DNA of 64,000 bases from Candidatus Poribacteria bacterium (GCA_965215015.1 OZ244042.1:3168001-3232000); one strand, 5' to 3'; numbered from the stretch's first letter, positions 2,826 through 30,618 are shown. Program-made: numbers and translations. Notes: generated by a model from the letters alone, not told the origin.

Positions 2826-2848
2826 TATATTATACACTATACAACAAT

Positions 2849-7832: not shown

Positions 7833-8086
7833 AACAGACCTCCTTTTGGAGTTCTAGATGAGACGATTCACACCGTACGATTTCCAATAGGTTCATTATG
7901 AAACTGAGACGCTATAGATGCTATCACAATATGGAACAGAAGGCAATAGAAATATGCGAGCAAAGATTTCCAGCCCGATTAAGACAGAATAATCGCAAAC
8001 AGTAGCGTGAATGTCGCTCGAGGTAACATCTATCCTCTCCTTTTAATCTTGCGGATTTAATCTGTGGAATCCTTTAATCCGTTTAA

Positions 8087-8270
8087 TCAGCGATCGACTT
8101 TCAACTGTCCCCACCAAATCAGTTCGCGATGGCGCGGATTGACAGCAGTTGGCTTCCGCTCCCTACAACACCAATCCGGGGAAAATCTATTGCCTTCATG
8201 GAGCTGGGTTAACCGGACCACTTCTTGTGAAGCGACCGTGATGCGATAGAGGTAGATTTCTGCCGCCTTC
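8087..8270 (-). pseudogene. 3' relic of a TolB/PD40-like exported protein with WGxLK tail
   Basis: Manual translation KAAEIYLYRITVASQEVVRLTQLHEGNRFSPDW...TAVNPRHRELIWWGQLKVDR*; no start or upstream part recognised. Confidence 0.6.
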
Positions 8271-8398
8271 TGCCGTCGAGGGAAACATGAGGTTGATGTT
8301 GAGCTGGTCTCGCATTTCCCAAGAAGCGTTTGATGTAGTGGGTGTAACTACAGTTGTCCCCGGCACTTCTGCTAATCCTATCTCAATGTTAGGAGACG

Positions 8399-10682
8399 CT
8401 ACGTTGTTGCACCATGTTTTCGGAGGATTTCAGCGATTTCTGTATGCCCTCTCTTCTCCGCCCAAGCGAGCGGGGTCGCCCATGGTGCACCCGCTAGATT
8501 CGGATCTGCGCCACGGTCAAGCAGAAATTCAACCAGCTTTTTCTGACCAAAGCGTGCAGCCCAGCCGAGCGGGGTTGATTTTAGTTTATCTTCCATCGCG
8601 TTGATATCGGCACCGTGATTGAGCAGCGTCCGGGCGAATTCAACAACCTCTTCCGCTGTATGCCCGTATGTTACAGGGTTACAGCTCTTGCCAGCCAAGT
8701 GATGGAGAATCGTGAAGTTGAACCGCTTATCGCGCGGATTTCGGAGGTTCGGGTCTATCCCGTATTCAAGCAGCATATCTAAAATTGTGATGGAGTCGCG
8801 CCGGTCGAATCCCTCGTTGTTAATTTTCAAATTGCCTAACCGCCAGCCGCGCACCGCCGCTTCTAGCAGATTGAATCCCTTAGCCTCATCATACTCTGGA
8901 TTATCGCGCAGTGCCACCCTGACCATATCAAGATTGCCCGCAATAACAGCATCATTCAGCAAGCCTTTGTGCTCTGTATTATCCCGATGCAGACTCTCCG
9001 CGATGGCAGGGAGATTGTTTGTCAGAAGATAACTCAATAGATCGGCGACCGCGCCGTGCTGAAACATCAGATCCGCAACGCGCTTGTGCCCATATTGATA
9101 CGCCCAGCATACAGCGTTGCCGGACGCGTAGACCGCTGTGTTTGGGTTTGCCCCGTTCTCAATCAGTAGTTTCACGACTTCATAATGTCCACGATTTGCT
9201 GCATACCAGAGCGGATGTCCCCACTGTTTTACCTTCTCGCCGGCGACATCCATCTCAAACGGCGCATCCGGATCCGCTCCAACATCAATTAACAATTGGA
9301 CAATTGGCGTATGCCCTTGAAAACAAGCCACGACCAGTGGGTTATCATAATCCTCCCAAAACGGCACCCTGCTTTTGCAGAGCTGCGTCTTATCCTCGCA
9401 GGCGTTGATGAACCGTTTCGCGCCTTCAACATCGCCAACGCCGCAGGCAACCCAGAGATCATACGCTGCACCTCGAGCAAGCAAGGCACCTGCGAGGATG
9501 GCGTAGGTTTTGTACATCTCATCCGGCACCTTCCAGCTGTGCGCGAGGCAGTGGTGGATCGGCCGGCTCCCGTCTGCGGCTCGATGGTCAATATCGGCCC
9601 CCCCGGTCCAGCAGCTCAAGGACGATCGACAAATCGCCCCGACCAATCGCTTTGAAAAGCGCAGTTTCTCCACCCTTATTGGTCGCATTGATAAGCTCCG
9701 CATCTTGGTTGAGCAACGATCGAATGGCTTCAATATCGCCATCTGCCGCAGCACGGGTTAAGGCTTCACCCTTTGATGTTGTCCCCCGTTGTTCGTTAAG
9801 CCACCCCTCAATGACCTCAACGACAGGGGTGTGCCCACGATCTCTCGCCATTGTCAGTGCACTAGTGGCTTCACGATGGGGATATATCCCATTGAGCGGG
9901 TCCCCCCCTGCTTCTAGTAGTACACGCACAATTTCAGTATGACCTTCCTCTGCTGCAAGATGGATGGGTTGATGTTCATTATTTGAGGCAATATCTTGGG
10001 TTGCTAACTCCGGCTTAACAGCGAGAATCTCCTGAACCCGTTGCAGGTCGCCTGCTTGCGCCGTATTGCAGAGGCCGACTGCGTTGATAAACGAATCATC
10101 GCGTGAGGGTGCGTTTTCATGGAGTGTATCCTTCAACATAGTAATCATCCTTTCAGAATGTAAAGTAGCTTTCAGCCGCTTCCTTGAGGCGCGGAGACGA
10201 TTATCCACTGTTGTCACCGGCACCTCTAGGAAGTCCGCAATCTGTTTCTGTGTAAAACCGCTGATATAGAAAAGTGTTGTGACCTGACGTTGGTTCTCCG
10301 GCAGTGCAGCAACCGCGGCTAATACGAGGGATTTTGTTTCTCGTTCCTCAATCTCATCCGCTGGATCTCTCCCGCCCGAAGGTATTTCGACCATCGTTTC
10401 CAGGGGCATGAGTTGGTCGCGCTTTCTGCGTGTCAAACGGTTGCAGTGTTTGAAAATAATCCGCCGAAACCAGCCCGGGAAAGCAACAGGACCGTAGACC
10501 TTTGAAAGAATGGGATAGGCCTCGATGAACGCCTCCTGTACAGCATCTTCAGCCAGATGGAAATCTCCTAGGATAGAGTAGGCGTAGCCCACTGCCATAT
10601 CCTGGAACTGTTGAACAATTACACCGTAGGCGTCCAGATCTCCGTCTTGTGCACGACTGATAAGTGATTCTAGCTCTTCCAT
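8399..10682 (-). CDS. ECF (sigma-70 group 4) sigma factor fused to ankyrin repeats; frameshifted at a G7 tract (about 760 aa if one G is removed)
   Basis: Sigma2 (LAEDAVQEAF, FPGWFRRI) and sigma4 (QKQIADFLEVPVTTVDNRLRASR) then ankyrin repeats. ORF 9588-10682 ends LLDRGGRY* and ORF 8399-9754 continues ...ADIDHR; removing one C from the C7 run at 9598-9604 restores LLDRGADIDHR. Confidence 0.85.
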
Positions 10683-11945: not shown

Positions 11946-14282
11946 ATGGCAACAATAGCAGCACCGACTCGGATGATGGGTGCCCCGATTAAGCGACGCG
12001 AAGATCCGCGGTTAATCCAAGGGTTATCCCGTTATGTCGATGACATTAAGCTGGTGGGCACTCTTCACTGTGCATTCCTGCGCAGCGACTATGCCCACGC
12101 AGTCATCAACAGCATTGATACATCAGCAGCGAAAGATTTACCCGGCGTCGTTACGGTGATTACCGCTGAAGACCTAGGGGAGGTCGGGGGCATCCCCTGT
12201 GGCGCGGAAATTCCAGACCTCAAGATTCCAGATCATCCCGCGCTCGCAGTGGGACGGGTGCGATTTGTTGGTGAGCCAGTCGCTGCGGTTGTGGCAACAG
12301 ATGCGTATACTGCCAGAGATGCGCTGGACCTGATTGAAGTTGATTACGAAGAGCTGCCCGCTGTCACCAATCTTGATAAGGCGGTCGAAGCAGACTCGCC
12401 GTTGATTTATGACGACTTTGGCGACAATATCGGCTTCACGACGCCGCTAGAGGCTGGCGATGTAGATGCGGCTTTCGCGGAAGCAGACCATGTCGTATCT
12501 CAGCGTTTCGTCAATCAGCGTCTGATTCCGAATGCAATGGAAACGCGTGGTGTGTTAGCTGAATACCTACCGGGCGAAGGCACCCTTACCGTCTGGTCCT
12601 CAACACAGGTTCCGCACATCCTTAAAACGCAGTTGTCTATTATCGTCAATGTGCCAGAACAGAAAGTGCGCGTCATCGCACCGGAAGTTGGCGGAGGCTT
12701 CGGTAGCAAGTTGAATGTTTACCCCGAAGAGGTCGTTGTCTCATATTTGGCGATGCAATTACGCAAACCGGTGAAATGGACGGAGAAGCGGACGGAGAAC
12801 TTCACGACGACAATTCATGGCAGAGATCAGGTCAACTATGTGGATGTTGCGGTCAATAACGATGGAATAATCACAGGGGTTCGTGCGAAAATTCTTGCCG
12901 ACCTCGGGGCGTCCTATCAGTTGCTCACCCCGCTTATCCCCACGTTAACAAACCTTATGATTGTCGGCTGTTATAAGATTCCGAATGTCCAGATCGAGCT
13001 GGTCGGCGTCTTAACAAATAAGATGGCGACCGATGCATACCGTGGTGCGGGACGTCCTGAAGCGACCTACATTATCGAGCGCATGGTTGATTTGGCAGCG
13101 GGGGCGGTAGGAATGGATCCGAAAGATATTCGGTTCAAAAACTTCCCGCAGCCGGATGAATTTCCGCTTGAAATCCCAACTGGAATTATCTACGATAGCG
13201 GCAATTACCAAGAAAGCTTTAACAAGGCTTTAGGAATTGTTGATTACGATGGCTTGCGAGCTCAGCAGGCGCAGCTCCGTCAGCAGGGTAGATATCTGGG
13301 AATTGGTATCTCCACCTATGCTGAGATCTGTGGTATGGGCCCCTCCATAGCGATGCCCGCCGGCGGTTGGGAAAGTAGCACCGTCCGGGTCGAACCGACC
13401 GGGAAGATTACGGTGTTGACTGGTGTTTCGCCACACGGTCAGGGGCAAGAGACCACCTTCGCACAGATGATCGCCGATGAGTTTGGCGTCGATATTGACG
13501 ATGTTGTAGTCATCCATGGCGACACCGGAAGGCAGCCCTACGGTATAGGCACCTTTGGTAGTCGAGCAACGGCTGTCGGTGGAACGGCGATGGTTATTGC
13601 CGCAGGTCAGGTGAAGGAAAAGATGGCAAAGTTCGCGGCGCACCTGATGGAAGCCAATCCCGAGGACCTCGCCTTTGAAGACGGAAGCATCTTTGTCGAA
13701 GGTTCACCGGATCAAGCGATTGACTTCGTGGCGGTTGCCCTAGAAGCACACGTCGCTAAAAACCTTCCGCCGGACACGACCCCTGGGCTCGAAGCAACGC
13801 ATTTCTTTGAACCGTCGAACTTTACCTATCCATTCGGTGCCCACATCGCAGTCGTTGAGGTTGACGCCGATACCGGCGAAATCACTATTCAGCGATATGT
13901 ATGCGTTGACGATATCGGCAATATTATCAACCCTTTACTCGTTGCGGGACAGGTACATGGCGGCATTGCACAAGGTTTGGGGCAGGCGCTGTACGAAGGC
14001 GCAGTCTACGATGAAAGTGGGCAGCTTTTGACTGGCTCATTTATGGACTATGCCGTTCCCAAGGCGACACAGATGCCTCACTTTGAAACAGACCATACGG
14101 TGACACCGTCGCCTGTAAATCCGATGGGAGTCAAAGGGGTTGGCGAAGCCGGGACGATTGGCTCAACGCCGTGTATGGTCAATGCTGTTGTGGATGCCTT
14201 AGCACCGTTTGGGGTGAAGGATATCGAGATGCCATTAACGCCGAACCGTGTGTGGCAGGCAATCCAAGACGCAAAGGGTTAA
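11946..14282 (+). CDS. coxL: Molybdopterin large subunit, CoxL form II / xanthine dehydrogenase family
   Basis: GGGFGSK, AYRGAGR (form II signature), GTFGSR, KGVGEAG. Confidence 0.9.
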   Translation: MATIAAPTRMMGAPIKRREDPRLIQGLSRYVDDIKLVGTLHCAFLRSDYAHAVINSIDTSAAKDLPGVVTVITAEDLGEVGGIPCGAEIPDLKIPDHPALAVGRVRFVGEPVAAVVATDAYTARDALDLIEVDYEELPAVTNLDKAVEADSPLIYDDFGDNIGFTTPLEAGDVDAAFAEADHVVSQRFVNQRLIPNAMETRGVLAEYLPGEGTLTVWSSTQVPHILKTQLSIIVNVPEQKVRVIAPEVGGGFGSKLNVYPEEVVVSYLAMQLRKPVKWTEKRTENFTTTIHGRDQVNYVDVAVNNDGIITGVRAKILADLGASYQLLTPLIPTLTNLMIVGCYKIPNVQIELVGVLTNKMATDAYRGAGRPEATYIIERMVDLAAGAVGMDPKDIRFKNFPQPDEFPLEIPTGIIYDSGNYQESFNKALGIVDYDGLRAQQAQLRQQGRYLGIGISTYAEICGMGPSIAMPAGGWESSTVRVEPTGKITVLTGVSPHGQGQETTFAQMIADEFGVDIDDVVVIHGDTGRQPYGIGTFGSRATAVGGTAMVIAAGQVKEKMAKFAAHLMEANPEDLAFEDGSIFVEGSPDQAIDFVAVALEAHVAKNLPPDTTPGLEATHFFEPSNFTYPFGAHIAVVEVDADTGEITIQRYVCVDDIGNIINPLLVAGQVHGGIAQGLGQALYEGAVYDESGQLLTGSFMDYAVPKATQMPHFETDHTVTPSPVNPMGVKGVGEAGTIGSTPCMVNAVVDALAPFGVKDIEMPLTPNRVWQAIQDAKG

Positions 14283-14283
14283 T

Positions 14284-14320
14284 ATAACTTTCCGAAGATT
14301 TCAAACCTTCGGAAAGTTAT
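14284..14320. repeat. Perfect 14-bp stem-loop between coxL and coxM
   Basis: ataactttccgaag-N9-cttcggaaagttat. Confidence 0.85.
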
Positions 14321-14349
14321 GCCCCAGTGAAGGAAGGAGGAAATAACGA

Positions 14350-15204
14350 ATGATTCCGGGAAGTTTTGAATACTTTGCACCGACAGCACTTGATGAAGCG
14401 TTATCGCTCTTGCAGGAACATGGAGACGATGCGAAGGTGCTCGCTGGTGGACATAGCCTGATTCCGACGATGAAATTACGCTTGGCTGAACCGGCGGTCC
14501 TCATCGACATTGGACGCATCGGTGACTTGAAAGGGATCTCTGAGTCAGACGGAAAATTGGTTATCGGTGCGCTGACGACGCATCACGAATTGGAGAGCTC
14601 GGATCTGGTTCAGCAGAAGGTGCCGCTGCTTGCACAAACCGCTGCCGCAATTGGCGATGTGCAAGTGCGCAACAAAGGTACGATCGGGGGCAGTCTTGTA
14701 CACGCGGATCCGGCTGCTGATTGGCCCGCAACGATTCTCGCACTTGATGCCAATCTCCAAATTACCGGCCCCAATGGCGAGCGGACTGTCAAGGTAACCG
14801 ATTTCTTCCAGGGACTGTACGAAACAGACCTTGGAGATGACGAAATCCTCACAGCAATCCATGTGTCGATTCCAGACGCTAACACCAAAGGGACATACCT
14901 GAAGCTGCACCAAGTGGCATCAGGATTTGCCCTCACGGGTGTGGCTGTCGTCTTGGCAAAATCCGGAGACACCTGTCAGAGCGTTTCTGTCGGCATCACC
15001 GGTGTTTCGGATGCCCCGTATCGGGCGTCGGGCGTTGAGTCTGAACTGACAGGGGTAGCACTGAACGCGGGGAATATTGCTGCCGCTGCTGAGAAAGCGG
15101 TTGACGGGGTAACTGCGTTGGAAGATATCCACGCAAGTCAGGCGTATCGTCAAAATTTGGCGAAGGTTTACACCCGTCGGGCGATTGAGAGTGCTGCGTC
15201 ATAA
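14350..15204 (+). CDS. coxM: FAD-binding medium subunit, CoxM/CutM family
   Basis: LAGGHSLIP.MKLRLA.P, RNKGTIGGS..HADPAAD. Confidence 0.92.
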   Translation: MIPGSFEYFAPTALDEALSLLQEHGDDAKVLAGGHSLIPTMKLRLAEPAVLIDIGRIGDLKGISESDGKLVIGALTTHHELESSDLVQQKVPLLAQTAAAIGDVQVRNKGTIGGSLVHADPAADWPATILALDANLQITGPNGERTVKVTDFFQGLYETDLGDDEILTAIHVSIPDANTKGTYLKLHQVASGFALTGVAVVLAKSGDTCQSVSVGITGVSDAPYRASGVESELTGVALNAGNIAAAAEKAVDGVTALEDIHASQAYRQNLAKVYTRRAIESAAS

Positions 15205-15511
15205 TCAGTCAAGGTAATGCGTCAAACGTAAAGGTCTCGTGCCCCCGATAGATTGGGATTTCGCTACATTCAACTTGCGTTTTACCTGTGACACCTTGCC
15301 AACTCGCTACATAAGGTGCCTCAAATTATACAACTTATGGTGAAAGTTAGTCATGCAGTAGTTTCTACAAGGATTGTAGTACCTACATACGTTGAGAGAG
15401 TCTTCGCCCTGTAGTTCAGCGATTCATCGCCGCACATGACAACTCTCACTGCCCGATGAATCGGGCAACTCCAGACGGTTGTTCCCTACTGAAGTGCGTA
15501 ACTCCTAATAT

Positions 15512-16505
15512 TACTAAAGTTTGTATAATTTAGGTGAAAAGAGGCAGAAAAGCGGTTATCCTTTCAGCAATCACCACAATTTTGAAAGGAGGGTTATAAT
15601 GCACCGCATTTTCTGCCTCGCTGCTATTTTAACGCAAGTTGCTAGATAAGTCGTAGGTCGAGTTTCCATACTCGACATCTACTAAAAATGACCAAATTTA
15701 CGTAAGATTCGGGCTGCTGAACGACGTGCAGTGATTTTCTCGATCTATCGTGCCTCGACCCAAGGCGGCACCTGGCCGCTGGGGATATGAATGAGTCCCA
15801 ATCCATGTAAGAATTGGAACCAATGGTCATTCTCCCCTACTTTACTTGCAGCACCCTTGCATTGTCAAGCAGAGTAGTATGCACAAAGGGCACGGCACAC
15901 AGAGTATGCCTACTAGCAATCGGTCTTATCACTCACCGACCCTGTGCCACGGTGCCCAGCATTTATCAAGGGTTTCGCCCCAACACGGGTTACAACTCAT
16001 TAGTGAAGTGCCTCTCCCGTGGCAAATGGGACACCGATGCAGTTGCCAAACATCTGATTAAATTGGGACATGGGGTGGTTGACAGGTGGGCCTACATTTA
16101 CGACAAGCCCCGGTCGATACAGACCGGGTGCAAATAATTTGGACTCCATTTCTTTAGCAGTCATCGCTACCCAAAAGCGGAACACCAATCCATCAAAGTT
16201 TCACTAAAGTATCAATCGAGATGGGTGCAACTCAGTTTTGTGACAAGTTGTTTGACCCAACGGACATTCAACGTCGCTTGTGCCACAGGCAATTCAATTA
16301 CAATCGAACAGGTGTGCCGGGCATTGGGCATGGATTGGTATCGCCCCCGTAAATTAACACGCGGGTTGATGGTGGAGTATCTGTGTGTCTTAATTGAGGG
16401 ACGATTATTTTCGGCGACCTCCCTCGAAGCTACCTACTCGCTGGTTGTTCAACAGACCCTTGATAAAGCTGCATGAATTGCTATCAAATTGTACAAACTT
16501 TAGTA
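15512..16505 (+). mobile_element. Decayed IS element with 20-bp TIRs and fragmented transposase
   Basis: tactaaagtttgtataattt (15512-15531) vs aaattgtacaaactttagta (16486-16505), 19/20 inverted match; RBS plus ATG at 15599; only short fragments remain (16225-16476 looks like a transposase C-terminus). Confidence 0.7.
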
Positions 16506-16556
16506 GCTACTAAAGTATTGTGAGATTCTTCAATTTGGCTGAAAACGAAGGACGAT

Positions 16557-19500
16557 ATGCAGACAATTCCTGAATTTTTTTATGGTAAAGTGATACTGAT
16601 CGCCGGTGCGACCGGATTTCTGGGTCAAGCACTTGTGGCGAAAATTCTCACTGCGCTTCCCGATGTGAGGCGAATCTATCTGCTCATCCGCAGTCAAAGT
16701 GGAGCTAATGGAGAAAAGCGGACCGCAATAGATCGGCTAGAAAATGAGGTGTTTACTTCAAGTGCCTTTGCGAAACTTAGACAAATTCACGGAGAGCGTT
16801 TTGCCGGATGGATTCGTGAAAAAGTCTGTGCGGTAGAAGGTGATTTGGCTTACGAGCGGCTCGGACTCTCTGATGCTGCTTATGAAATGTTGCAGCGCGA
16901 GGTGCAGGTCTTCATTAACAGTGGTGGTCTCGTCAAATTTGATCCACCTATTGATGCATCCTTGCAGAGCAATGTGCTTGGGTCAAAGTACGCGGTTGAA
17001 TTAGCAAGAAGCTGTAACGACGCGGTTTTTCTGCACGTGTCGACTGCTTATGTTCGTGGTGTTCAACCGGGAAAAGTTCCTGAAGAGTTACATCCACCGT
17101 ACGAAACTTATGCCGAACAATATCAAGCAGAAAAGGGAGAAGTAATCCCTGGCACCCTTGATGCCGAAATCGAAGATATCCAACGACTGGGCGAACAGGT
17201 TAGGGAGGAAGCGAATCAACCTGAGAGACTCGATCAATTCCGGCGTGAAGTCCTACGAAATTTAGGTGCTGACACAGGAGAAAAGCTGAACAAACAGATT
17301 GATATTGCGCGGGGGAAATGGGTTGAGCAGCGTTTAACCGATGAAGGTTTGAAACGGGCCCATACGCGAGGTTGGAACGATACTTATACCTATATGAAAG
17401 CCCTCGGGGAACAGATGATTGCTAAGATGCGAGGTGATCTGCCGACAGCAATTATTCGCCAATCAATTATGGAAAGTAGTCTTGAGGATCCAGAGCCGGG
17501 ATGGCTGGGGGGTACGCTTCGTATGGCGGATCCACTTATCGTGGGCTTTGGAAAAGGGCGTTTGCCGGACTTTCCCGGCGACCCGAATAGTATCCTTGAT
17601 ATTATTCCTGTTGATTTCGTTATCAACGCTATTTTAGCGGCGACGGTGCGGACCTATTACCAGCAAGGTATTGAGGTCTATCACGTTGCGAGCGGCGCGC
17701 GCAATCCCCTGACTTTTGGCGATATCGTCGATATCACTCACGACTACTTTGTGCGACAGCCCCTGTTGGCTAACGGCAAGCCGATACCTGTTCCTGTGTG
17801 GAAGTTTCCAGCAGAGGCGAAATTTCAGAGTGATTTGCGCTATAAGCTGCGATTGCTCGACACAGCTAGCCGTTGGCTCAATCGCCTTCCATTGAGATGG
17901 GCAAAACGGAAGGAGCGCCGAATCGCAGTCAAAAAGAACGCTATTAAGACCCTACTACACTATGTGCAGATTTATGGCCCCTATGTCCGCCTTAGTTTTG
18001 AATTTGAAATTGGCAAGACAGAAGAACTTTACGATTCCCTTTCGCCTTCAGATCAACAACATTTCAACTTCGATATTTCACGTATTGATTGGCGACGTTA
18101 TCTCCAAGAAATACACATCCCAGGAATCAAACGACACTTTCTCAAACTAGGCGACGACTCAGGGAATCAGAGAATCAGCGAACCGACACCCGATCGAATT
18201 GACGAATTATCGGCGGATACTTCCGAAATACCAGAAATGGACAAACAAGCCCACAATGAATCCGGGGAGCAACCTATTAAACTGACCCGACAGGATCGGG
18301 ATTCAAAGCCCCTTGAGTCTCAGACAATGATCGATTTGGTTGCTCAACAGGCAGAGTCTATTCCAGATAAAATCGCGTTGCAGACGAAACGGGGGGGCGA
18401 GTGGGTGCGCTATTCTTATCGTCAACTCTATGAGGTTTCGCGGCAGGTCGCTTTTACGCTGTGGAAGCGGGGTTATCGCAAAAGTGATCGAGTAATCCTT
18501 TTCGCTGAAAATCAACCAGAGTGGGGTATCGCTTATTTAGCTGCTGTGCAGATCGGTGTCATTGTGGTTCCAATTGACCCACAGACCGCTGAAGAAGAGA
18601 TTTTCGCGCTTGCGGAGTACACTGAAGCAAAGGCAATTTTGACTTCTGAAGCCTGTGTCGCTCGTTTACATAGTACCCCGATAAAGCCCCGGGCGGAATC
18701 GACATCACCAGAGTTCTTGAATATCAATCGTTTCTGCCAACCTTTTGGAGGTGAACAACCCGAAACCTCTGTTCCCACGGATTGGGGACTGCCCGCAGTT
18801 CCTGATAACTTCCCCGATATGGACATTCATCCAGATACGGTTGCGTCAATTATTTTCACGATGGGCACAACCGTAGATGCACGAGGGGCAATGATCTCGC
18901 ACAGGGGCTTTATTGCGAACGTTGTTGCTGTTTCACAAGTGCTGCCTCCTGAAGACACAGATCAATTTCTTTCGGTACTGCCGTTGTACCATGCTCTGGG
19001 GTTCTCCTGCAATTTCTTGATGTCAATTTATGCCGGTACAACCACCACATACACCAATAGTTTAAGACCGACTACGATTTTAGCAATCATGCGGGAGACC
19101 AAGACCACTGTTCTGATTGGGGTGCCGCGTCTGTTCCAGCTGCTCTACGATGCAATTAAGCGTTATGTTGTACAGTCTCCCGAAGCAATGGAAGCTCCGC
19201 TTGCCCCAGAAGTTGTTCAAGAGATTCAAGCTGCGTTGGGTGGGCATATCCGCGTTCTGGTCAGCGGTGGCGCTGCATTGCCGGACGAAGTGTACGATCG
19301 ATTCATGGAGTTTGGATTAACAATCTATCAAGGTTATGGCATGACAGAAGCCTCTCCTGTTCTGAGTGTCAATCCTCATCACAAAAGCAAACGGGGGGCG
19401 GTTGGCCCCGCAGTTGAAGGGGTGCAGCTCGAGATAACCAACCCTGATGAGGACGGCATTGGTGAGATTGTCGCAAGCAGCCCAAGCCTGATGCAGGGTT

Positions 19501-21020
19501 ACTATCGAAATCAAGTAGGGACAGAAACGGTGATTCGAGAGGGGCTGCTTTATACAGGCGATTTGGGATACTTTGATGAGGAGGGTTATCTGTATCTCAC
19601 TGGACGCAGCAAGAATGTAATTGTGTCTGGTGCCGGTAAGAACATCTATCCGGTCGAACTTGAAGCACTCTACCGACATAGCCCCTTGATCTCAGAGATT
19701 TGCGTTGTCGGGATGAGCACAGATAATCTGTTTGAGGCAGCGCACGCTGTCATCGTTCCAGTTCTCGACGATGATCGGGACAGGACTGAAATCGAGAGAG
19801 CCATCCATCAGCATATTCAGGAACGTGCCCAAGATTTGCCGACATATCAGCATATCCAAACAGTGCACTTTTGGGATACTGAATTGCCCAAGACATCGGA
19901 CGCGATAATAAATCGTCAACGTGTTAAAGAGGTATTGCAGGAACAACTCTCTCAACAAACACAGGTCTCTCCACAGCTCGCCCCCGTCAAGGTTACTCTG
20001 GATGCTGATGGAACCGCGGGGGCCTTGACTCCAACAATAGCAGCTGACATGCCTTTGGGGGTTGAGGCGGTTATTATTTCTGAACTCAGTCGTTTGGCAC
20101 AACTGCCGGCGGATCAGATTAGTTTGAACAGTAATTTAGGGACAGAACTCGGGCTGGATTCAATGGCACGGGTGGAATTGTTACTATTGCTAGAATCGAG
20201 GCTGCAACGCTCGATTCCCGATGAGTTGATAGCCAAAATCCAGACGGTTGGCGACGTGACAGAGACAGTCAAAACGTTGCAATCTGAGTCTACCTCCCCT
20301 CCCATTGATGAAGAAATATCCCCCCATATTGAACAGTCTGAATCCTCACATTTGTCTATGATACTTGCAGGGCTATTCCGATTCGGTGTGTGGGCGATCT
20401 ATCGGTGTTACTTCTCGATTAAGTGCAGTGGACTGGAAAACCTTCCGCGTGAACAACCGTATATCATCGCCGCTAATCATTCAAGCCACCTCGACACCCT
20501 CGCGGTCATGACCGTTTTGGGTAACGAATCCAAACGCCTGAGAGTTCTCGCTGCAAAAGACTACTGGTTTAGCACCCGCTTCAAATCATGGTTCTCCGGC
20601 GAATTGCTTAAATTCGTGCCGTTCGATCGGCACGCCAACTTCTTACAGGGGCTCCGAATTTCGCAGGAGGTGCTGAAACAGAACGATTGCTTGCTAATTT
20701 ACCCCGAAGGTACCCGCTCTGTCACAGGGGAGCTTCAACCGTTCAAGCCCGGTCTCGGCTTGTTGGCTTATGAGACCGGATCTCCGATTATTCCTGCTTA
20801 TATTGACGGCACTTACCGTGCGCTTCCTAAAGGCAAAAACCTACCGAGCAAGAGCCGTATTCGAGTGACTTTTGGCAAACCCATCATGCCTGGCAGACAT
20901 GAAATAGGGAAGACAGACGATACTTCAGGGCTGGAGCAGGAAATTTACAGAAAACTTGCCGACGCCGTCAGGTCTGAGATTGAAGCATTAAGAGCGGATT
21001 GCGTGAAACGTGAAACGTGA
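16557..21020 (+). CDS. ElbD-like multidomain lipid enzyme: fatty acyl reductase + AMP-binding domain + ACP + PlsC-type acyltransferase
   Basis: FAR: AGATGFLG, HVSTAYV, YTYMK, DIIPVD; AMP-binding: GYGMTE, YTGDLG, GRSKNVI; ACP: LGLDSMARVEL; acyltransferase: NHSSHLD, YPEGTRS. Confidence 0.88.
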   Translation: MQTIPEFFYGKVILIAGATGFLGQALVAKILTALPDVRRIYLLIRSQSGANGEKRTAIDRLENEVFTSSAFAKLRQIHGERFAGWIREKVCAVEGDLAYERLGLSDAAYEMLQREVQVFINSGGLVKFDPPIDASLQSNVLGSKYAVELARSCNDAVFLHVSTAYVRGVQPGKVPEELHPPYETYAEQYQAEKGEVIPGTLDAEIEDIQRLGEQVREEANQPERLDQFRREVLRNLGADTGEKLNKQIDIARGKWVEQRLTDEGLKRAHTRGWNDTYTYMKALGEQMIAKMRGDLPTAIIRQSIMESSLEDPEPGWLGGTLRMADPLIVGFGKGRLPDFPGDPNSILDIIPVDFVINAILAATVRTYYQQGIEVYHVASGARNPLTFGDIVDITHDYFVRQPLLANGKPIPVPVWKFPAEAKFQSDLRYKLRLLDTASRWLNRLPLRWAKRKERRIAVKKNAIKTLLHYVQIYGPYVRLSFEFEIGKTEELYDSLSPSDQQHFNFDISRIDWRRYLQEIHIPGIKRHFLKLGDDSGNQRISEPTPDRIDELSADTSEIPEMDKQAHNESGEQPIKLTRQDRDSKPLESQTMIDLVAQQAESIPDKIALQTKRGGEWVRYSYRQLYEVSRQVAFTLWKRGYRKSDRVILFAENQPEWGIAYLAAVQIGVIVVPIDPQTAEEEIFALAEYTEAKAILTSEACVARLHSTPIKPRAESTSPEFLNINRFCQPFGGEQPETSVPTDWGLPAVPDNFPDMDIHPDTVASIIFTMGTTVDARGAMISHRGFIANVVAVSQVLPPEDTDQFLSVLPLYHALGFSCNFLMSIYAGTTTTYTNSLRPTTILAIMRETKTTVLIGVPRLFQLLYDAIKRYVVQSPEAMEAPLAPEVVQEIQAALGGHIRVLVSGGAALPDEVYDRFMEFGLTIYQGYGMTEASPVLSVNPHHKSKRGAVGPAVEGVQLEITNPDEDGIGEIVASSPSLMQGYYRNQVGTETVIREGLLYTGDLGYFDEEGYLYLTGRSKNVIVSGAGKNIYPVELEALYRHSPLISEICVVGMSTDNLFEAAHAVIVPVLDDDRDRTEIERAIHQHIQERAQDLPTYQHIQTVHFWDTELPKTSDAIINRQRVKEVLQEQLSQQTQVSPQLAPVKVTLDADGTAGALTPTIAADMPLGVEAVIISELSRLAQLPADQISLNSNLGTELGLDSMARVELLLLLESRLQRSIPDELIAKIQTVGDVTETVKTLQSESTSPPIDEEISPHIEQSESSHLSMILAGLFRFGVWAIYRCYFSIKCSGLENLPREQPYIIAANHSSHLDTLAVMTVLGNESKRLRVLAAKDYWFSTRFKSWFSGELLKFVPFDRHANFLQGLRISQEVLKQNDCLLIYPEGTRSVTGELQPFKPGLGLLAYETGSPIIPAYIDGTYRALPKGKNLPSKSRIRVTFGKPIMPGRHEIGKTDDTSGLEQEIYRKLADAVRSEIEALRADCVKRET

Positions 21021-21029
21021 GAAAGCCCA

Positions 21030-21094
21030 TCACAGAGACGCGGAGTCGCAGAGATTTTTTAATGGGCTCTCTGTGCGCTCTGCGTCTCTACGGT
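21030..21094. repeat. Imperfect intergenic hairpin (cacagagacgcggag...ctctgcgtctctacgg)
   Basis: Inverted repeat directly after the stop codon of the 1487-aa gene. Confidence 0.6.
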
Positions 21095-21120
21095 AAAACA
21101 GAACGAGCAGGCGAGCAGAA

Positions 21121-21813
21121 TTGAACACAGTGAAAAGAAAAAAAACAGCAGCCTTCTTCGATGTTGATGGCACCATCGTGAGCACGACTATTGTCCACTA
21201 TTACGTCCAATTTCGTTCCCACCTGCTTCCTACCTTTCTACGTCCCTTCTGGCTTGCTTGGTTTGCGTTGAAAGTTGTCTACTACTTTTTTCTAGATAAA
21301 GTGAGTCGCACAAGATTCAACCAAGTTTTCTATCGTAACTATCGAGGGTTGGAAGCGGGGCGCGTCAAACAGCTTGCTGGTGAACAGTTCGAGATTTATG
21401 TGCGTTCAAAGTTATTCCCCGCTGCTTTAGACCGTATTCGTGAACACCAAGGACGGGGCGATCTGATTGTGCTTGTGACTGGCTCTCTCGATTTTATTAT
21501 CCACCCTCTCGCTGATTACCTACAAGCGGACGCTGCGTTGACTGTGCAACTTGAGGAGGCACACGGAAAATTTACGGGGGAATTGACAACACCGCCGCTG
21601 AGCGAAACGGAAAAGGTTCACGCGATCCAAACTGTCGTCGAACAGCATAACGTTGATCTCGCTGCCAGCTATGCCTATGGCGATAGCCGAGCGGATTTGC
21701 CTATGCTACAATGTGTTGGTAACCCCGTTGTCGTCAATCCAAGCAAAGGGTTGCGGCAGGTTGCAATAGAATCGGGGTGGGAAATTAGTGAGTGGACTAT
21801 TGGCGGCAAATAG
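21121..21813 (+). CDS. HAD-IB (SerB-like) phosphatase
   Basis: FFDVDGT, LVTGS, YGDSRADLPML. Confidence 0.88.
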   Translation: MNTVKRKKTAAFFDVDGTIVSTTIVHYYVQFRSHLLPTFLRPFWLAWFALKVVYYFFLDKVSRTRFNQVFYRNYRGLEAGRVKQLAGEQFEIYVRSKLFPAALDRIREHQGRGDLIVLVTGSLDFIIHPLADYLQADAALTVQLEEAHGKFTGELTTPPLSETEKVHAIQTVVEQHNVDLAASYAYGDSRADLPMLQCVGNPVVVNPSKGLRQVAIESGWEISEWTIGGK

Positions 21814-21919
21814 GAGTAGATGATAAGAGGAAAACGAGAGCACAGAAGAAAAAGAAGGCGTGCAAAGATAAAAGCGTGTAATCGTCTCTTATCTTTTCTC
21901 ACTTTCTCAGGAGAAAATT

Positions 21920-22129
21920 ATGAAGGTCAATCGCTATTTTGAATCACACCACGAACCGAATGATACTATGTTTGTCGAAATCGACAACCGATACCGGTTT
22001 ACCGGGCGCGGCACTGATTGGGGAAAATTCCGTGCCCACCTGATCACGGTTATCAAGGATACCATCTCCGATGAAGTTGCTGAGGAATTTGAGCAAAACA
22101 CGGAAAATTGGGTATCCGCTAGTGGCTAA
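21920..22129 (+). CDS. Small hypothetical protein (69 aa)
   Basis: AGGAG RBS, ATG, protein-like composition, operon position. Confidence 0.65.
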   Translation: MKVNRYFESHHEPNDTMFVEIDNRYRFTGRGTDWGKFRAHLITVIKDTISDEVAEEFEQNTENWVSASG

Positions 22130-22147
22130 GATCTGAGGGGGCCCCCA

Positions 22148-23179
22148 GTGGACCAGATTTTCATATTCGACAGAGCGAAGATTGGGACGGAGTTGAATCG
22201 GTTTGTTGATTATGCTCAAACATTGACAGGGCCGAAGGAGCTTTCAACAGCGATCCAAGCGTGGGATACCATTGCGTCTGTCGCGGTTGCGCCGGTGCTT
22301 CTCGCGCAGACAAATTTGTCACTGGGGCGGATCTATAGGGAGTGGGATGAACTGTTTACTGCCCAAAGGTTCCTTACGAAGGCACACGAAGTAGATCCTG
22401 CCGATCCAGCAATCAGGTCCGAATTAGAGTCTCTCAATCACCATATCGCTGACAATCAAACGTCGGTTTTTGATGAAAGGGCGCGAAAAAACAGCGATTC
22501 AATCGTCTCACTTTTCCGAATTGCAACGGGGCTCAAGCTGCTTCAGATGGACAAGCCGGTACAAGCGTATCCTCTGATGAAGAGCCGTACCAAAATTTAC
22601 CCGAATGCGGCGGTAGCCAAGCACCTCCTTACAGGCATTATTATTACAGAAGATGAAAAAAATTCGGCGATCGAGTTTTTGGAAGCGGGGGAATGGTTGA
22701 CGAATACGCAGCACGAAGTGTACGCAATCACCGATCTCGGATTATATGCGTTTTATACGGAGTTGGCGAAACTGCATGTCGCCAATGAGGCGTATGACGA
22801 AGCAGCTGTATGTTATAAACAGGCGTATTGGCTCGATGATTCGTCAACGGATCTGTTGTATCACAAGCTGATTTGTGCCGCGAAGGCTCAGACGTGGCAG
22901 ATTGGGCTCGCACTTCTCGATTGGCTGCCCGATGAACTGCCGAACGGGATTGAGCCGGTAGAATACAATAGTGCCGCTGCGACAATCTGTGGGCTTGCCT
23001 ATCAAGCGACACAGGATACGGCGATTGGACAACGCGCCGTTGCAATATGCGAAACTGTCTTAGAGGCCGACAGAAGGAATAAGGAGATATCGAACCTGCT
23101 CAAATCCCTACGCTCCGAAAAATCCCTCCAACCCCACTTACCGGAAGCCAAGTTTAAAAGAAGATGGTGGCAACGGTAA
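22148..23179 (+). CDS. TPR-repeat hypothetical protein
   Basis: 343-aa ORF with TPR-like helices (LGRIYREW...KAHEVDP; YDEAAVCYKQAYWLD). Confidence 0.65.
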   Translation: MDQIFIFDRAKIGTELNRFVDYAQTLTGPKELSTAIQAWDTIASVAVAPVLLAQTNLSLGRIYREWDELFTAQRFLTKAHEVDPADPAIRSELESLNHHIADNQTSVFDERARKNSDSIVSLFRIATGLKLLQMDKPVQAYPLMKSRTKIYPNAAVAKHLLTGIIITEDEKNSAIEFLEAGEWLTNTQHEVYAITDLGLYAFYTELAKLHVANEAYDEAAVCYKQAYWLDDSSTDLLYHKLICAAKAQTWQIGLALLDWLPDELPNGIEPVEYNSAAATICGLAYQATQDTAIGQRAVAICETVLEADRRNKEISNLLKSLRSEKSLQPHLPEAKFKRRWWQR

Positions 23180-23194
23180 ACGCTGCAGCCCCAT

Positions 23195-25591
23195 TCAACT
23201 ACGCAATGTTGCCCCTAACTCCCGTTCTAACCGTTCTAAAACCCTCCCGTGAACCCGATCGACAGTTTCATCCGTGAGCGTTTCCGCTGTCGAACGATAT
23301 TCAATTGCAAATGCCAAACTTTTCTTTCCTTCGGGGACCTGTTCGCCTGTGTAGACATCGAACAGGTGCAACGAAGAGACTAACTCGCCGCCGGCAGATT
23401 TAATGATTTGGGTCGGGCGGCTGGCCGGTGTATCCGCATCTAGCACAATGGCAAGATCCCGATTGACACTGGGGTAAATTGGGATGGTCTCGAATTGTCT
23501 CATTGGTTCTACCCCGTTGAGCAATCCTTCACAATCGAGTTCAAACAGATACGCCTTGTGAGGTAGGTCATAATTTTCCAGTACCTCCGGATGGGCTTCA
23601 CCGAAGACGCATAGCGTTTTATCTTCAACGCAAATTTCCGCCCGGCGTCCGGGATGGAAAGCTGGGTGGTCGGTGTGGACGATGGTGTAGTCTGAGATGC
23701 CGCATCGGTCTAGCAGGCCTTCGATAACTCCTTTGATGTCGAAGAAATCTGCTGGACGGAGCGGATCGCCGTATACACCTCCACCGAGATTACCCGCTAT
23801 GATGCCCGCGACACGCTCAGGTTCATTTGGATATTCCCCCATTTCGTTTGAAATAAAGACCTTGCTGTACTCAAAGAATTGCACATCGTTAATCTGATGG
23901 TTCCGGTTGCGTTGTGCATTTGCCAGTAAGCTAGGAAGCAGGGTTGTTCGCATGATCGACTGATCCTTGCTCAATGGATTAGCAATTTGAACCGCTTGGC
24001 GGAGTGGATCGGTTGACGCGAGACGGATGCGATCAAAAACGTCCGGTTGATAGAATGCGTAATTCATCGCTTCCATCATGCCACATTGTAGGAGATACGT
24101 TTTTACACGCTCACGCAGATTTTCCTTCGGGTCGACCTTTGGAATCGGGATGTCGCCCCTCGGCAGCGTGGTTGGGATGTTGTCGAAGCCGTAAACACGC
24201 GCAATCTCTTCGACCAAATCGATTTCCTGTCTTACATCAGAGCGGAAGGTGGGGATTGTAACCTCAAACGTATCAGACACGATAAAACCAAGGCGAGTCA
24301 GGATGTCGCGCATCTGATCTGCTGCAATTTCGGTTCCCAAAACAAAGTTGGCACGCTCTGGACGGAGTTTGATATTGATAGCTTCTCGCTTACCCGGATA
24401 GACATCAATAATTCCCGCGCAGATCTCTCCTCCGGCAATTTCCGCGATGAGTTGTGCTGCACGGTTGATAGCTGGAATAACGCCTTCGGGGTCTGCGCCA
24501 CGTTCAAATCGGTGAGAGGCTTCGCTGTGCATTCCCAAAGCCTTTGACGTTTTCCGAATGCTTGGCGGATAGAAGTATGCACTTTCAAGCAGCACATCAA
24601 CCGTCTGATCGGTAATCTCCGAATCGAATCCACCCATCACACCAGCCAAGGCAACCGGGGTCTCTGCATCGGCAATGACAAGCATATCGGGCGTCAACTC
24701 TCGTTCCTCTGCATCAATCGTCTTCAGCGTCTCACCCGGCTCAGCACGGCGGACAACAATCCTATTCTCAGCCAGTCGATGATAATCAAAAGCGTGTAAG
24801 GGGTGTCCGTATTCCATCAGGACGTAATTGGTAATATCAACGATGTTGTTAATCGTTCCGATGCTGAGGGCTTCAAGCCGACGCTGTAGCCAAGCGGGAG
24901 AAGGCGCGATTTTGACCCCTCGAATAACTCGCGCTGCGTAACGTGGACAGAGGTCTGGTGCCTCAATCGTTACGCTGGTGAGATTTTGGATATCTGTCGT
25001 TCCTTGTTCGACATTTACTTCGGGCAGCTTGAGTGGATTTCCCGTGGTTACGCTAATTTCCCTCGCAACCCCGATTATGCTGAGGCAGTCTGGGCGATTG
25101 GGCGTGATCTCAAGTTCTAGCACGACATCGTCCAACCCGAGAGCTTCGACAAGCGGGCCACCGATTTGTGTGTCGTTGGGGAGTTCCATCAAGCCTGATG
25201 CCTCATCTGAAATCGCCAATTCTAGCTCCGAGCAGAGCATCCCCTGCGATTCCTCACCCCGGATTTTTGCCCGCTTGATTGTCAACCCGTTGGGTAGTTG
25301 TGCACCGATGAGTGCAACAGGTGCAACTAACCCTTCGTGTGCATTTGGGGCACCGCAGACGATTTGTGCGTCAGTGTCTGACCCGATATCAACACTGCAT
25401 AGCACCAATTTGTCTGCCTTCGGGTGATTTTCCACGGTGTTGATTCTGCCAACGACTACCCGATCCAGTCCCTCTCCAAGCTGTTTAACTGATTCGATTT
25501 CCATACCGAGCATAAGCAGACGCTCTGCTAGAGCTTCGGGGGACAGATCGAAATCAACATATTCTTTTAACCAGTTGATGCTTACGTTCAT
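23195..25591 (-). CDS. pheT: Phenylalanine--tRNA ligase beta subunit
   Basis: HPKADKL, IVCGAPN, TPNRPD, RFERG, C-terminal FDX-ACB domain (LFDVYTGEQVPEGKKSLA). Confidence 0.98.
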   Translation of the reverse strand: MNVSINWLKEYVDFDLSPEALAERLLMLGMEIESVKQLGEGLDRVVVGRINTVENHPKADKLVLCSVDIGSDTDAQIVCGAPNAHEGLVAPVALIGAQLPNGLTIKRAKIRGEESQGMLCSELELAISDEASGLMELPNDTQIGGPLVEALGLDDVVLELEITPNRPDCLSIIGVAREISVTTGNPLKLPEVNVEQGTTDIQNLTSVTIEAPDLCPRYAARVIRGVKIAPSPAWLQRRLEALSIGTINNIVDITNYVLMEYGHPLHAFDYHRLAENRIVVRRAEPGETLKTIDAEERELTPDMLVIADAETPVALAGVMGGFDSEITDQTVDVLLESAYFYPPSIRKTSKALGMHSEASHRFERGADPEGVIPAINRAAQLIAEIAGGEICAGIIDVYPGKREAINIKLRPERANFVLGTEIAADQMRDILTRLGFIVSDTFEVTIPTFRSDVRQEIDLVEEIARVYGFDNIPTTLPRGDIPIPKVDPKENLRERVKTYLLQCGMMEAMNYAFYQPDVFDRIRLASTDPLRQAVQIANPLSKDQSIMRTTLLPSLLANAQRNRNHQINDVQFFEYSKVFISNEMGEYPNEPERVAGIIAGNLGGGVYGDPLRPADFFDIKGVIEGLLDRCGISDYTIVHTDHPAFHPGRRAEICVEDKTLCVFGEAHPEVLENYDLPHKAYLFELDCEGLLNGVEPMRQFETIPIYPSVNRDLAIVLDADTPASRPTQIIKSAGGELVSSLHLFDVYTGEQVPEGKKSLAFAIEYRSTAETLTDETVDRVHGRVLERLERELGATLRS

Positions 25592-29093: not shown

Positions 29094-30509
29094 TCAGAAC
29101 GGTATGACCTTGCCGGGGTTCATAATATTTTGTGGATCTAGGGACTTTTTGATAGCGTACATCACGTCAACACCTAGTCCATGTTCCTGTTTAAGTGCCT
29201 CAATCTTGCCCAGTCCGATGCCGTGTTCACCGGTGCATGTGCCATCCATCTGGAGCGCGTATTCAACGAAAAGTTGGCTAAGCCGTTGCGCCTCCTTTAA
29301 TTCTTCAGGACGGTTGGGATCGAGGGGGAACACTACATGAAAATTGCCATCTCCTACGTGTCCGAGCAGGGGTGCAACTAGGTCGGAGGCTTGGATCTCC
29401 TGCTTAGTTTTCAGGATGCAATCCGCCAAGCGTGAGATAGGGACGCAAACGTCCGTGACGTACCCAACCGATCCGGGGCGAAGTGCCAGTGAGGCGTAAT
29501 AGCTATCATACCGTGCCTGCCAGAGCCGGTTGCGCTCTTCCTCCCCGGCTACCCATTGAAAGTCTTCGCCACCCTGTTCGCGGACAATTGCGCCCACAGT
29601 TTGCGCTTGCTCAGTCACCGCGGATTCCGAACCGTGAAATTCAAAAAGGAGCGTTGGAGCGACCTTGTAATCCAAGCTGGAGTATGCATTAACTGCATCC
29701 ATCTGAATTTCGTCTAGCAACTCCAGTCGAGCCACAGGAATGCCGGCTCCAATTACTTTAATGGCTGTATTTGCGGCTGCTGCGACCTCTGAAAACGTAC
29801 ATACTGCTGCTGAAACAGCCTCCGGCATCTTCGCCAACTTCAATATTACCTCTGTGATAACACCGAGCGTCCCTTCCGAACCCACAAATAATCGCGTCAA
29901 ATCATAGCCGGCGGCGGACTTACGAGCGCGCCCCCCGGCGCGGATAATGTTCCCATTGGCGGTTACTACGGTCAATCCCAGTACGTTCTCCCGCATGGTA
30001 CCGTAACGCACTGCGGCGTTGCCCGATGCGCGTGTCGCTGCCATACCGCCCAACGACGCGTCTGCCCCCGGATCGACAGGGAAGTAAAGCCCCGTCCCGG
30101 TTTCAGAAAGATGGATGTTGAGCTGGTTTCGTGTGACCCCCGCCTGCACTGTTGCGTCCATATCGTTCTGATTGACCTGAAGAATTTGGTCCATCTGGGT
30201 CAAATCGACGCAGATACCTCCGTGGATAGCGACAACTGCTCCTTCAACGCCGGTCCCTGTGCCGAAGGGGACAATCGGCATGGAATACCGGGCACAGATT
30301 TTCACGATCTGGGAAACTTCTGTGTTAGTGTGAGGGAATGCGACAGCATGTGGTAGATGGGGGAGGTGATGAGAAACATCCTTCGCATGATCCTCCCGAA
30401 TATCTTTCGCGGTAGTCAGACGGTTCCCCAGTAAACTGTACAATTCGTCAAACATTTCAGGACTCATAGCAGTATCCCGGTGATATTGTGCGGCTGCATA
30501 GCTACTCAT
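29094..30509 (-). CDS. FAD-linked oxidase, D-lactate dehydrogenase/GlcD family
   Basis: PVDPGADASLGGM, GSEGTLG, HVGDGNFH, GEHGIG, MNPGK; start moved to ATG 30509 (GAAAGGA RBS). Confidence 0.9.
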   Translation of the reverse strand: MSSYAAAQYHRDTAMSPEMFDELYSLLGNRLTTAKDIREDHAKDVSHHLPHLPHAVAFPHTNTEVSQIVKICARYSMPIVPFGTGTGVEGAVVAIHGGICVDLTQMDQILQVNQNDMDATVQAGVTRNQLNIHLSETGTGLYFPVDPGADASLGGMAATRASGNAAVRYGTMRENVLGLTVVTANGNIIRAGGRARKSAAGYDLTRLFVGSEGTLGVITEVILKLAKMPEAVSAAVCTFSEVAAAANTAIKVIGAGIPVARLELLDEIQMDAVNAYSSLDYKVAPTLLFEFHGSESAVTEQAQTVGAIVREQGGEDFQWVAGEEERNRLWQARYDSYYASLALRPGSVGYVTDVCVPISRLADCILKTKQEIQASDLVAPLLGHVGDGNFHVVFPLDPNRPEELKEAQRLSQLFVEYALQMDGTCTGEHGIGLGKIEALKQEHGLGVDVMYAIKKSLDPQNIMNPGKVIPF

Positions 30510-30618
30510 TCTATCCTTTCCCCATACATCGTGGTCAATCTCTTCTTGGTTTCCTCCGTGAACTAAGGATTGGGACATGCCCATCGGGAAGTGGTTTCAG
30601 GGGCCGGAGGTCAATTAT

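Follow-up and report, generated by a model that had tools for sequence, protein, structure and literature searches.

The window analyzed in this study is a stretch of 64,000 nucleotides from Candidatus Poribacteria bacterium (GCA_965215015.1 OZ244042.1:3168001-3232000). It carries an elbD-like gene (16557..21020, + strand) as one unbroken open reading frame (ORF) for a protein of 1487 amino acids (aa), in which Pfam recognized a fatty-acyl reductase, an adenylation (A) domain of the ANL superfamily, a carrier protein and a PlsC-type acyltransferase. The A domain does not possess the catalytic lysine of motif A10, and none of the orthologues found in the same order possesses it. Our results show that the A domain is maintained by selection and that its losses are specific to adenylation-type residues. 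Judging from the residues kept and lost, the way in which this ANL domain deals with fatty acids is probably not that of its relatives. The explanation that we prefer, to which we give a little short of an even chance, is that the domain may catalyze only the thioester-forming step: it would not adenylate with ATP, and it would load its own carrier protein from a pre-activated acyl donor.

Absence of the A10 Lysine from the ANL Domain

The A domain was matched by two Pfam profiles almost over their full lengths: AMP-binding (PF00501; residues 596-983, 18342..19505, 2e-72, profile positions 2-384 of 384) for the N-terminal subdomain, and AMP-binding_C (PF13193; residues 1034-1114, 19656..19898, profile positions 1-73 of 76) for the C-terminal subdomain. 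The two-subdomain AMP-binding fold of the ANL superfamily is predicted by these profiles. The nearest solved relatives were fatty-acyl, feruloyl, malonyl and 4-coumarate CoA ligases (1e-39).

HMMER aligned FTMGTTVDARGAMISH with YTSGSTGRPKGAMLTH and YTSGTTGRSKGAMLSH from solved CoA ligases. The A3 P-loop, FTMGTTVDARG (residues 767-777, 18855..18887), was paired with the P-loops YTSGSTGRPKG and YTSGTTGRSKG of solved CoA ligases. The A10 segment, LPKTSDAIINR (residues 1110-1120, 19884..19916), was paired with LPKTATGKIQR of the oxalate-CoA ligase 8aff. Because these two segments are aligned, Ile1117 occupies the position of the A10 lysine. A first-pass annotation of this DNA had placed both segments at exactly these coordinates and had reported that the catalytic lysine was absent from A10; the translation and the alignment agree with it in both respects.

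Five residues are invariant in 374 ANL sequences, namely A5 Glu, A6 Gly, A7 Asp, A8 Arg and A10 Lys (PMC6122825), and the A10 lysine is required for adenylate formation (PMC10510592). Four of the five were retained in the window protein: E931 in A5, G967/G969 in A6 (matched by motif only), D1002 in A7 and R1017 in A8. The fifth, the lysine of PxxxxGK, is Ile1117. Thus, by motif comparison, the only invariant residue that the window protein lacks would be the one that serves adenylation alone. GYGMTE, TGDLG and GRSK were all read in the translation of the domain and the frame was unbroken, as the annotation had stated.

The P-loop does not follow the A3 consensus (S/T)(S/T)G(S/T)TGxPK. TMGTTVDAR departs from it at four positions (2, 6, 8 and 9); the residues T, G, T and T stay, as does the final G. 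Asp774 was considered as a residue that might repel phosphate. This candidate was rejected, since canonical P-loops also read GTTGDPKG or GTTGEPKG.

The A8 hinge and the hairpin behind it, GRSKNVIVSGAGKNIYPVELE (residues 1016-1036, 19602..19664), are conserved in the variant branch described below. This segment includes Asn1029; in the HMMER alignments with several ligases, this residue is paired with the Asn of their GEN(I/V)YP motif.

Conservation among Orthologues and Homologues

Of the 41 genomes searched in the same order, a set that includes the window's own, 40 carry an orthologue in open frame with no stops inside the matches. The sole genome without a match (G013) is 88% complete, and in another (G019) the gene is partial and split over two contigs. 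The named close homologues were labelled Candidatus Poribacteria. Lysine at position 1117 was found in none of the 40 orthologues and in none of the 119 closest clusters at 90% identity. In these clusters, the position is occupied by V (92), A (8), G (5), E (5), M (4), T (2), and L, I or D (1 each). The variant form of the P-loop was present in 40/40 orthologues and in 120/120 of the closest clusters.

Outside this group, lysine at position 1117 was observed in all 43 canonical full-length ElbD-like rows and in all 120 Haliangium-type proteins. Among the loci of Myxococcota and Acidobacteriota, 57 of 62 had lysine at the aligned position, and the other five had it two residues earlier. These five canonical-clade homologues (L208-L212) come from Polyangia and proteobacterium metagenome-assembled genomes, and read LP[KR]T[AP]K[RK]S[VI]KR as compared with LPKTATRKVKR. 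A shifted lysine was also considered for the variant proteins and was rejected: at K1112, every branch has either K or R, and a basic residue at K1124 is found in clade II (see below) as well.

The remaining motifs were kept. A5 GYGxTE together with A7 [TS]GDLG, the GKN[IV]YP hairpin, the LDS serine of the carrier protein and HxxHLD of the acyltransferase were each found in 40/40 orthologues, and PEGTR was found in 39/40 (L022 reads PEGGR). A8 Arg1017 was kept in 34 of the 40 and was His in the other six. Within the variant branch as a whole, the A8 region was strongly conserved: G1016 33/33, R1017 29/33, K1019 32/33, G1027 33/33 and K1028 32/33, with N1029, Y1031, P1032 and E1036 of the hairpin at 33/33 each.

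Contigs of four runs from four studies span nucleotides 18800-19950, and the frame is open in them. In the A10 loop of related contigs, Val replaces Ile at the lysine position, and one codon is gapped in frame. Among the differences listed, a single one falls in the P-loop, at the third codon position at 18884. At 19899..19905, the contig of run X7, from a related strain with 165 differing letters in 1151 bases, shows I-to-V together with an in-frame gap of one codon net.

The first-pass annotation had proposed to align orthologues, and had named canonical motifs in them as the outcome that would speak for strain-specific decay or sequencing error. Instead, the substitutions recur in the orthologues, and these are under purifying selection (40/40 orthologues, 119/119 clusters, dN/dS ~0.10). 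Thus, decay in one strain, a pseudogene, or a sequencing or assembly error is extremely improbable as the source of these motifs, since orthologues in open frame occur in 40 of 41 genomes, the substitutions recur throughout the orthologues and the close clusters at dN/dS ~0.1, and the frame is preserved over this stretch in contigs from four studies.

Selection on the A Domain

Pairwise dN/dS values were calculated by the Nei-Gojobori method for 18 full-length sequences of the genus (153 pairs). The values were 0.093 for the reductase, 0.101 for the N-subdomain of the A domain (residues 585-1010), 0.109 for its C-subdomain (residues 1011-1140) and 0.120 for the acyltransferase. The carrier protein had the lowest value among the domains (0.047), and the three linkers had values of 0.23-0.42. 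The A domain is under purifying selection equal to that on the motif-intact domains. Inside the A domain, the P-loop stretch (residues 764-780) was the most constrained part, with a value of 0.030, and the A10 stretch (residues 1108-1124) had a value of 0.219, so that it evolves like a linker.

These values bear on the claim of the first-pass annotation that the domain had lost its ATP-binding and catalytic motifs. With respect to the catalytic motif the claim stands, the A10 lysine being gone. With respect to ATP binding it was overstated, because the P-loop keeps T768, G770, T771, K/R776 and G777. The reported loss of the P-loop was likewise put too strongly: the stretch is constrained at dN/dS 0.03, the change of Gly to Val is common to relatives that keep the lysine, and Asp at the x position is found in canonical P-loops as well (GTTGDPKG).

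Phylogeny and the Sites Released from Constraint

Trees of the A domain were constructed without the A3 and A10 columns (FastTree, 168 rows; quick IQ-TREE, 82 rows). Clade I possesses the canonical motifs and has Haliangium ochraceum, Myxococcota and Acidobacteriota as its named members. In clade II (SH-aLRT 98), the third Gly of the P-loop is replaced by Val or Leu, and the basal members keep LPKTSTLKVKR; 11/11 basal rows have the lysine, with seven Val and four Leu at position 773. A nested group of 40 rows (support 94) contains every lysine-less row, together with four rows that have Lys (P0129, P0162, P0196 and P0125). The minimum number of changes of the Lys state on the 82-row tree was three. 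P0125 and L036 are ~99% alike, yet differ by K and E at this position.

The named lysine-less members are Poribacteria, an acidobacterial protein (Acidobacteriota, L041), P0131 (Gemmatimonadota) and P0136 (Candidatus Fervidibacterota). Because these come from four phyla, the lysine change is old and cross-phylum. As placed on the trees, the lysine is lost near the base of the 40-row branch, which spans at least four phyla.

We then counted as lost those sites whose conservation in both canonical clades does not extend to the variant group. The numbers of lost per conserved sites were 2/51 in the reductase, 20/77 in the N-subdomain and 6/21 in the C-subdomain of the A domain, 0/5 in the carrier protein and 3/33 in the acyltransferase. 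Thus, 26/98 sites were lost in the A domain versus 5/89 elsewhere (Fisher p = 1.2e-4, a value that overstates the difference because the rows are related). The lost sites include 769, 772, 775, 776 and 778 in the P-loop, Arg1099 in A9, and Thr1113, Thr1115 and Lys1117 in A10. Position 1119 is Lys in the canonical rows and Asp in the variant group. No position was newly conserved as Lys or Arg anywhere in the variant clade, and the sole clade-specific conserved residue was Leu814.

Non-poribacterial members of the variant group had degraded P-loops, such as FTTTLTADPKG in P0134 and LLSGATQEPKG in P0136; P0135 and P0138 belong here as well, and FVTGPTVEPRG was another such form. P0134, P0135, P0136 and P0138 retain A5 and A8. 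A7 reads TGDLG in three of them and SGDVG in P0135.

Two proteins of clade I, P0244 (1443 aa) and P0245 (1141 aa), have degraded A3, A5, A8 and A10 independently, P0244 having degraded A7 also, and both kept the domain architecture. Because these proteins degraded nearly all A motifs and still kept the architecture, adenylation would be dispensable in ElbD-type proteins. A similar indication comes from one poribacterial family of the order (f2, L029-L034), in which R1017 is replaced by His (TGHCKD or TGHTKD), a second loss of an invariant residue inside the lysine-less branch. Since A8 Arg is His in these 6/40 orthologues, dispensability of adenylation is favoured.

The same observations would suit an ANL domain that is not catalytic at all. 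Such a domain might serve as a scaffold, as a docking module for the acyl chain or the carrier protein, or as a nucleotide-sensing module, and the reductase and the acyltransferase would use acyl-CoA or acyl-ACP (acyl carrier protein) directly. Degenerate ANL domains persist in other enzymes of lipid or natural-product metabolism, in DIP2 FLD2 (PMC9342972) and PyrG A1 (PMC10510592), and P0244, P0245 and the His-bearing family could be read in this way. A pure scaffold, however, is expected to lose the residues that P0244 and P0245 lost, whereas A5 Glu, A7 Asp, A8 Arg (34/40), GKN[IV]YP (40/40) and the carrier serine (40/40) are conserved here, and the carrier protein is the most constrained domain. 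We therefore regard a non-catalytic role as improbable.

Thioester Formation without Adenylation as the Proposed Activity

In the explanation that we prefer, one subclade of ElbD-type proteins would have released from constraint the parts used for adenylation only, namely the A10 lysine together with residues next to it and some of the P-loop. A5 Glu, A7 Asp and A8 Arg, which hold the AMP moiety, are still conserved. The A8 hairpin with Asn1029, which is predicted to face the active site in the thioester-forming state, is conserved along with the carrier protein. In 4-chlorobenzoate CoA ligase (CBL), Asn411 contacts the AMP phosphate only in the thioester-forming state (PMC6122825). The domain would thus still bind the AMP moiety, would have stopped activating free fatty acid with ATP and would have retained the second half-reaction, directed onto its own carrier protein. 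The first-pass annotation had suggested that the A domain is repurposed or that its activity is supplied in trans, and the pattern of conservation would agree with such a reading.

Six other ANL ORFs were found in the same genome, all with the A10 lysine. With such ordinary lysine-intact enzymes available in the genome, acyl-CoA suggests itself as the donor, and acyl-CoA made by one of the six would be the likeliest one. Thioester formation could be run backwards on the acyl-CoA and then forwards onto the carrier protein, using bound AMP. Such a reversal should need neither the lysine nor the pyrophosphate contacts of the P-loop. From the carrier protein, the acyl group would be handed on to the reductase and the acyltransferase, and a phosphate would be removed from the glycerolipid product by the enzyme of the HAD family encoded next to elbD.

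A more specific form of this proposal is that a cross-phylum branch of ElbD-type proteins carries a natural half-reaction ANL domain, which would act as an AMP-assisted transacylase from acyl-CoA to the carrier protein inside a megasynthase. This form is tentative and rather doubtful. If it were true, the acyl-CoA pool, and not free fatty acids, would supply ether-lipid synthesis in Poribacteria and their allies.

Several points weigh against the thioester-only explanation. The poribacterial P-loop, with the five residues listed above and its dN/dS of 0.03, fits continued ATP binding. Neither of its conspicuous changes is diagnostic of a loss of activity: Val or Leu at 773 is common to the 11/11 basal rows of clade II with lysine, and Asp at the x position occurs in canonical P-loops. 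The correspondence of Asn1029 with Asn411 of CBL would follow from motif alignments with ligases and from arithmetic, without a direct alignment to CBL. There is no linked partner gene besides the HAD enzyme. The canonical motif set used for comparison excludes ElbD of Myxococcus xanthus, the sole ElbD tested in vitro. To our knowledge, there is no precedent for AMP-dependent transfer from acyl-CoA to a carrier protein by an ANL domain inside a synthase.

Some of these points lead to the opposite possibility, that ATP-dependent adenylation and carrier loading are retained as in M. xanthus ElbD and that the A10 lysine is dispensable in this branch. The lysine might be dispensable because turnover is slow, because another group took over its role, or because the closed state is different in the megasynthase. 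The conserved core of the P-loop, the four of five invariant residues, the whole-domain dN/dS of ~0.10, and the relatives with a GTTV/L P-loop that keep the lysine and are presumably active are all consistent with retained adenylation, and M. xanthus ElbD showed acyl-CoA synthetase (ACS) activity in vitro (PMC9131029). However, the lysine is reported as invariant in 374 ANL sequences and as required for adenylate formation (PMC6122825, PMC10510592), and its position is hypervariable here, with no fixed replacement and with K and E in two proteins that are ~99% alike. A compensating conserved Lys or Arg was not found; K or R stands at K1112 in either branch, and K1124 is not a feature of the variant group alone. 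Moreover, the P-loops are wrecked in sister lineages. We consider retained adenylation rather unlikely, although it deserves to be taken seriously.

A further possibility keeps the thioester step and changes the donor: acyl-AMP would be delivered by a separate adenylating ANL enzyme, in the style of PtmA1 and PtmA2, which appear to divide the two half-reactions between them (PMC6594144). The conservation pattern expected from such a supply in trans is the same as that for the thioester-only explanation with acyl-CoA, and the six ANL genes with canonical lysine could provide the partner. However, no ANL gene adjoins elbD in the window or in the acidobacterial variant locus L041. In addition, an enzyme that produces acyl-AMP normally keeps it tightly bound, which counts against its delivery in trans. 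This possibility is therefore quite unlikely in our estimation.

Comparison with Known Systems

The reference system is the elbABCDE operon of M. xanthus (Lorenzen et al. 2014), as described in PMC9131029, PMC13012113 and PMC9426513. The window pair resembles ElbD and ElbB of M. xanthus in its reductase similar to fatty-acyl reductases, its domain similar to acyl-CoA synthetases, its ACP, its AGPAT-like acyltransferase and its HAD partner. In contrast to the operon, the window elbD has no adjoining homologue of elbA, elbC or elbE, so that the linkage to elbC and elbE (NAD-dependent epimerase/dehydratase genes in M. xanthus) is not seen. M. xanthus ElbD possesses ACS and ACP activities in vitro, and the chemistry of the ElbD route is unsettled (PMC9131029). 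The six Myxococcota homologues compared (L044, L046, L060, L111, P0163 from Haliangium ochraceum, and P0166) carry the A10 Lys, whereas the window protein has Ile. Five of them have the P-loop GTTGxPKG and L046 has SSGTTGKPKG, as compared with TMGTTVDARG in the window protein. No Myxococcus record was among the matches listed from pattern scans of genome contigs and from a protein search with the Haliangium homologue.

As with canonical ANL enzymes (acyl-CoA synthetases, the adenylation domains found in non-ribosomal peptide synthetases, as well as luciferases), the window domain shows the full-length match to AMP-binding and AMP-binding_C, A5 Glu931, the A6 glycines, A7 Asp1002 and A8 Arg1017. 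Unlike them, it has Ile in place of the A10 Lys, at a position that is hypervariable in its branch.

PtmA2 of platensimycin biosynthesis is said, after work by Wang et al. in 2018, to be a non-adenylating, stand-alone acyl-CoA ligase with a dedicated adenylating partner, PtmA1. By analogy, the window domain may be like PtmA2 in being an ANL-fold protein that is kept by selection and is thought to perform the second half-reaction only. It differs in that a dedicated adenylating partner gene is present in the cluster of neither the window elbD nor L041. In the first A domain of PyrG, critical residues of A3 are missing along with the catalytic lysine (PMC10510592), and FLD2 of the lipid enzyme DIP2 is an ANL domain that has diverged (PMC9342972). 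Each of these stands beside a second, intact ANL domain, whereas the window protein has a single one. Furthermore, DIP2 FLD2 lost A5 and A7, both of which are intact in the window protein.

The ElbD/ElbB pair and its occurrence in Poribacteria are already published. Poribacterial clusters of elbD and elbB only have been described (bioRxiv 10.64898/2026.06.23.733905; PMC9426513), and the former report states that ether-lipid synthesis is not on record for this phylum. Its main text does not mention a lysine, a motif, a P-loop or the word inactive. In the literature searched, no case of A10-lysine loss in an ElbD was found; the tables of A-domain residues (Table S5 of PMC9426513 and Table S4 of the preprint) may already show the substitutions. 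Thus, what appears to be undescribed is a conserved and mechanistically telling change of the A domain in a known gene pair.

The A10 lysine has been treated as a universal requirement of ANL enzymes. Here, a large and old clade without it is found under purifying selection. Since this clade has no second ANL domain beside the altered one and the rest of the domain is kept, it offers a natural test of which parts of the fold belong to which half-reaction, and it could reveal ATP-independent loading of a carrier protein. The enzymes of sponge symbionts are currently the proposed source of the alkylglycerol ethers of sponges, and what was seen in vitro with M. xanthus ElbD should not be carried over to them. 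Substrate calls made by adenylation-domain predictors for these clusters may also rest on a wrong premise.

The Gene Pair and Its Surroundings

The order of a reductase similar to fatty-acyl reductases, an ANL domain, an ACP and an AGPAT-like acyltransferase in one polypeptide is that of ElbD. The first-pass annotation had named this architecture and the HAD-IB partner, and the Pfam order and the TIGR01490 match bear it out. The reductase part covers residues 15-530 (16599..18146; NAD_binding_4 15-359, 3.4e-60, and Sterile 461-530). Its motifs, GATGFLG (residues 17-23) and YTYMK (Y277 to K281), were read in the translation and are conserved in orthologues. The carrier protein domain (PP-binding, residues 1173-1237, 20073..20267) contains Ser1202 in GLDS. 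The acyltransferase (PF01553, residues 1288-1416, 20418..20804, 4.7e-25) possesses both signatures of its family, HX4D in HSSHLD (residues 1308-1313, H1308 to D1313) and PEGTR (residues 1383-1387). Thus, the domains other than the A domain are intact in their motifs, as had been noted from the sequence.

The elbB-like gene (21121..21813, + strand, 230 aa) starts 100 bases downstream of the elbD ORF. Its product matched the HAD-IB model TIGR01490 with 147.5 bits, above the curated cut-off of 98.3 (5.9e-43), as well as PF12710 (1.6e-35), and carries the DxDxT and GDxxxD motifs of HAD-IB phosphatases as DVDGT and GDSRAD. A HAD gene lies directly downstream of elbD in all 20 loci with enough flank (L001-L020). 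By domain order and gene linkage, this locus represents elbD and elbB, the bacterial ether-lipid genes, in their poribacterial form.

The genome has four FAD-oxidase_C ORFs, one of them with an E-value of 2e-4, and alkyl-dihydroxyacetone phosphate synthase (AGPS) was not found among the other three, which were compared. The three best match D-lactate dehydrogenase or glycolate oxidase. No AGPS having been found, any ether bond would therefore come from an AGPS-independent ElbD route. The FAD-linked oxidase of 496 aa encoded ~8 kb downstream of elbD (29094..30584, - strand) was considered as an AGPS and was rejected, as it is a close relative of mitochondrial-type D-lactate dehydrogenase (8jdc, 3e-150).

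Promoter and terminator scans near the locus gave sites at chance level, and no Rfam family was found within 15000..23500. The flanks of the gene pair are not related to lipids: subunits of a molybdenum hydroxylase are encoded upstream, and a tetratricopeptide repeat protein and then pheST downstream. The large subunit of the hydroxylase (Ald_Xan_dh_C, MoCoBD_1 and MoCoBD_2) and then its FAD-binding subunit occupy 11946..15204 (+ strand). The 1.35 kb between them and elbD (15205..16556) contain a sole ORF of 107 aa (15814..16137) without a Pfam match.

The acidobacterial locus L041, which carries a lysine-less ElbD, is richer than the poribacterial cluster. A lipid kinase of the diacylglycerol-kinase/YegS type is encoded upstream (2094..2951), the HAD gene adjoins elbD on the downstream side, and a zinc alcohol dehydrogenase (8013..9206) follows the HAD gene.

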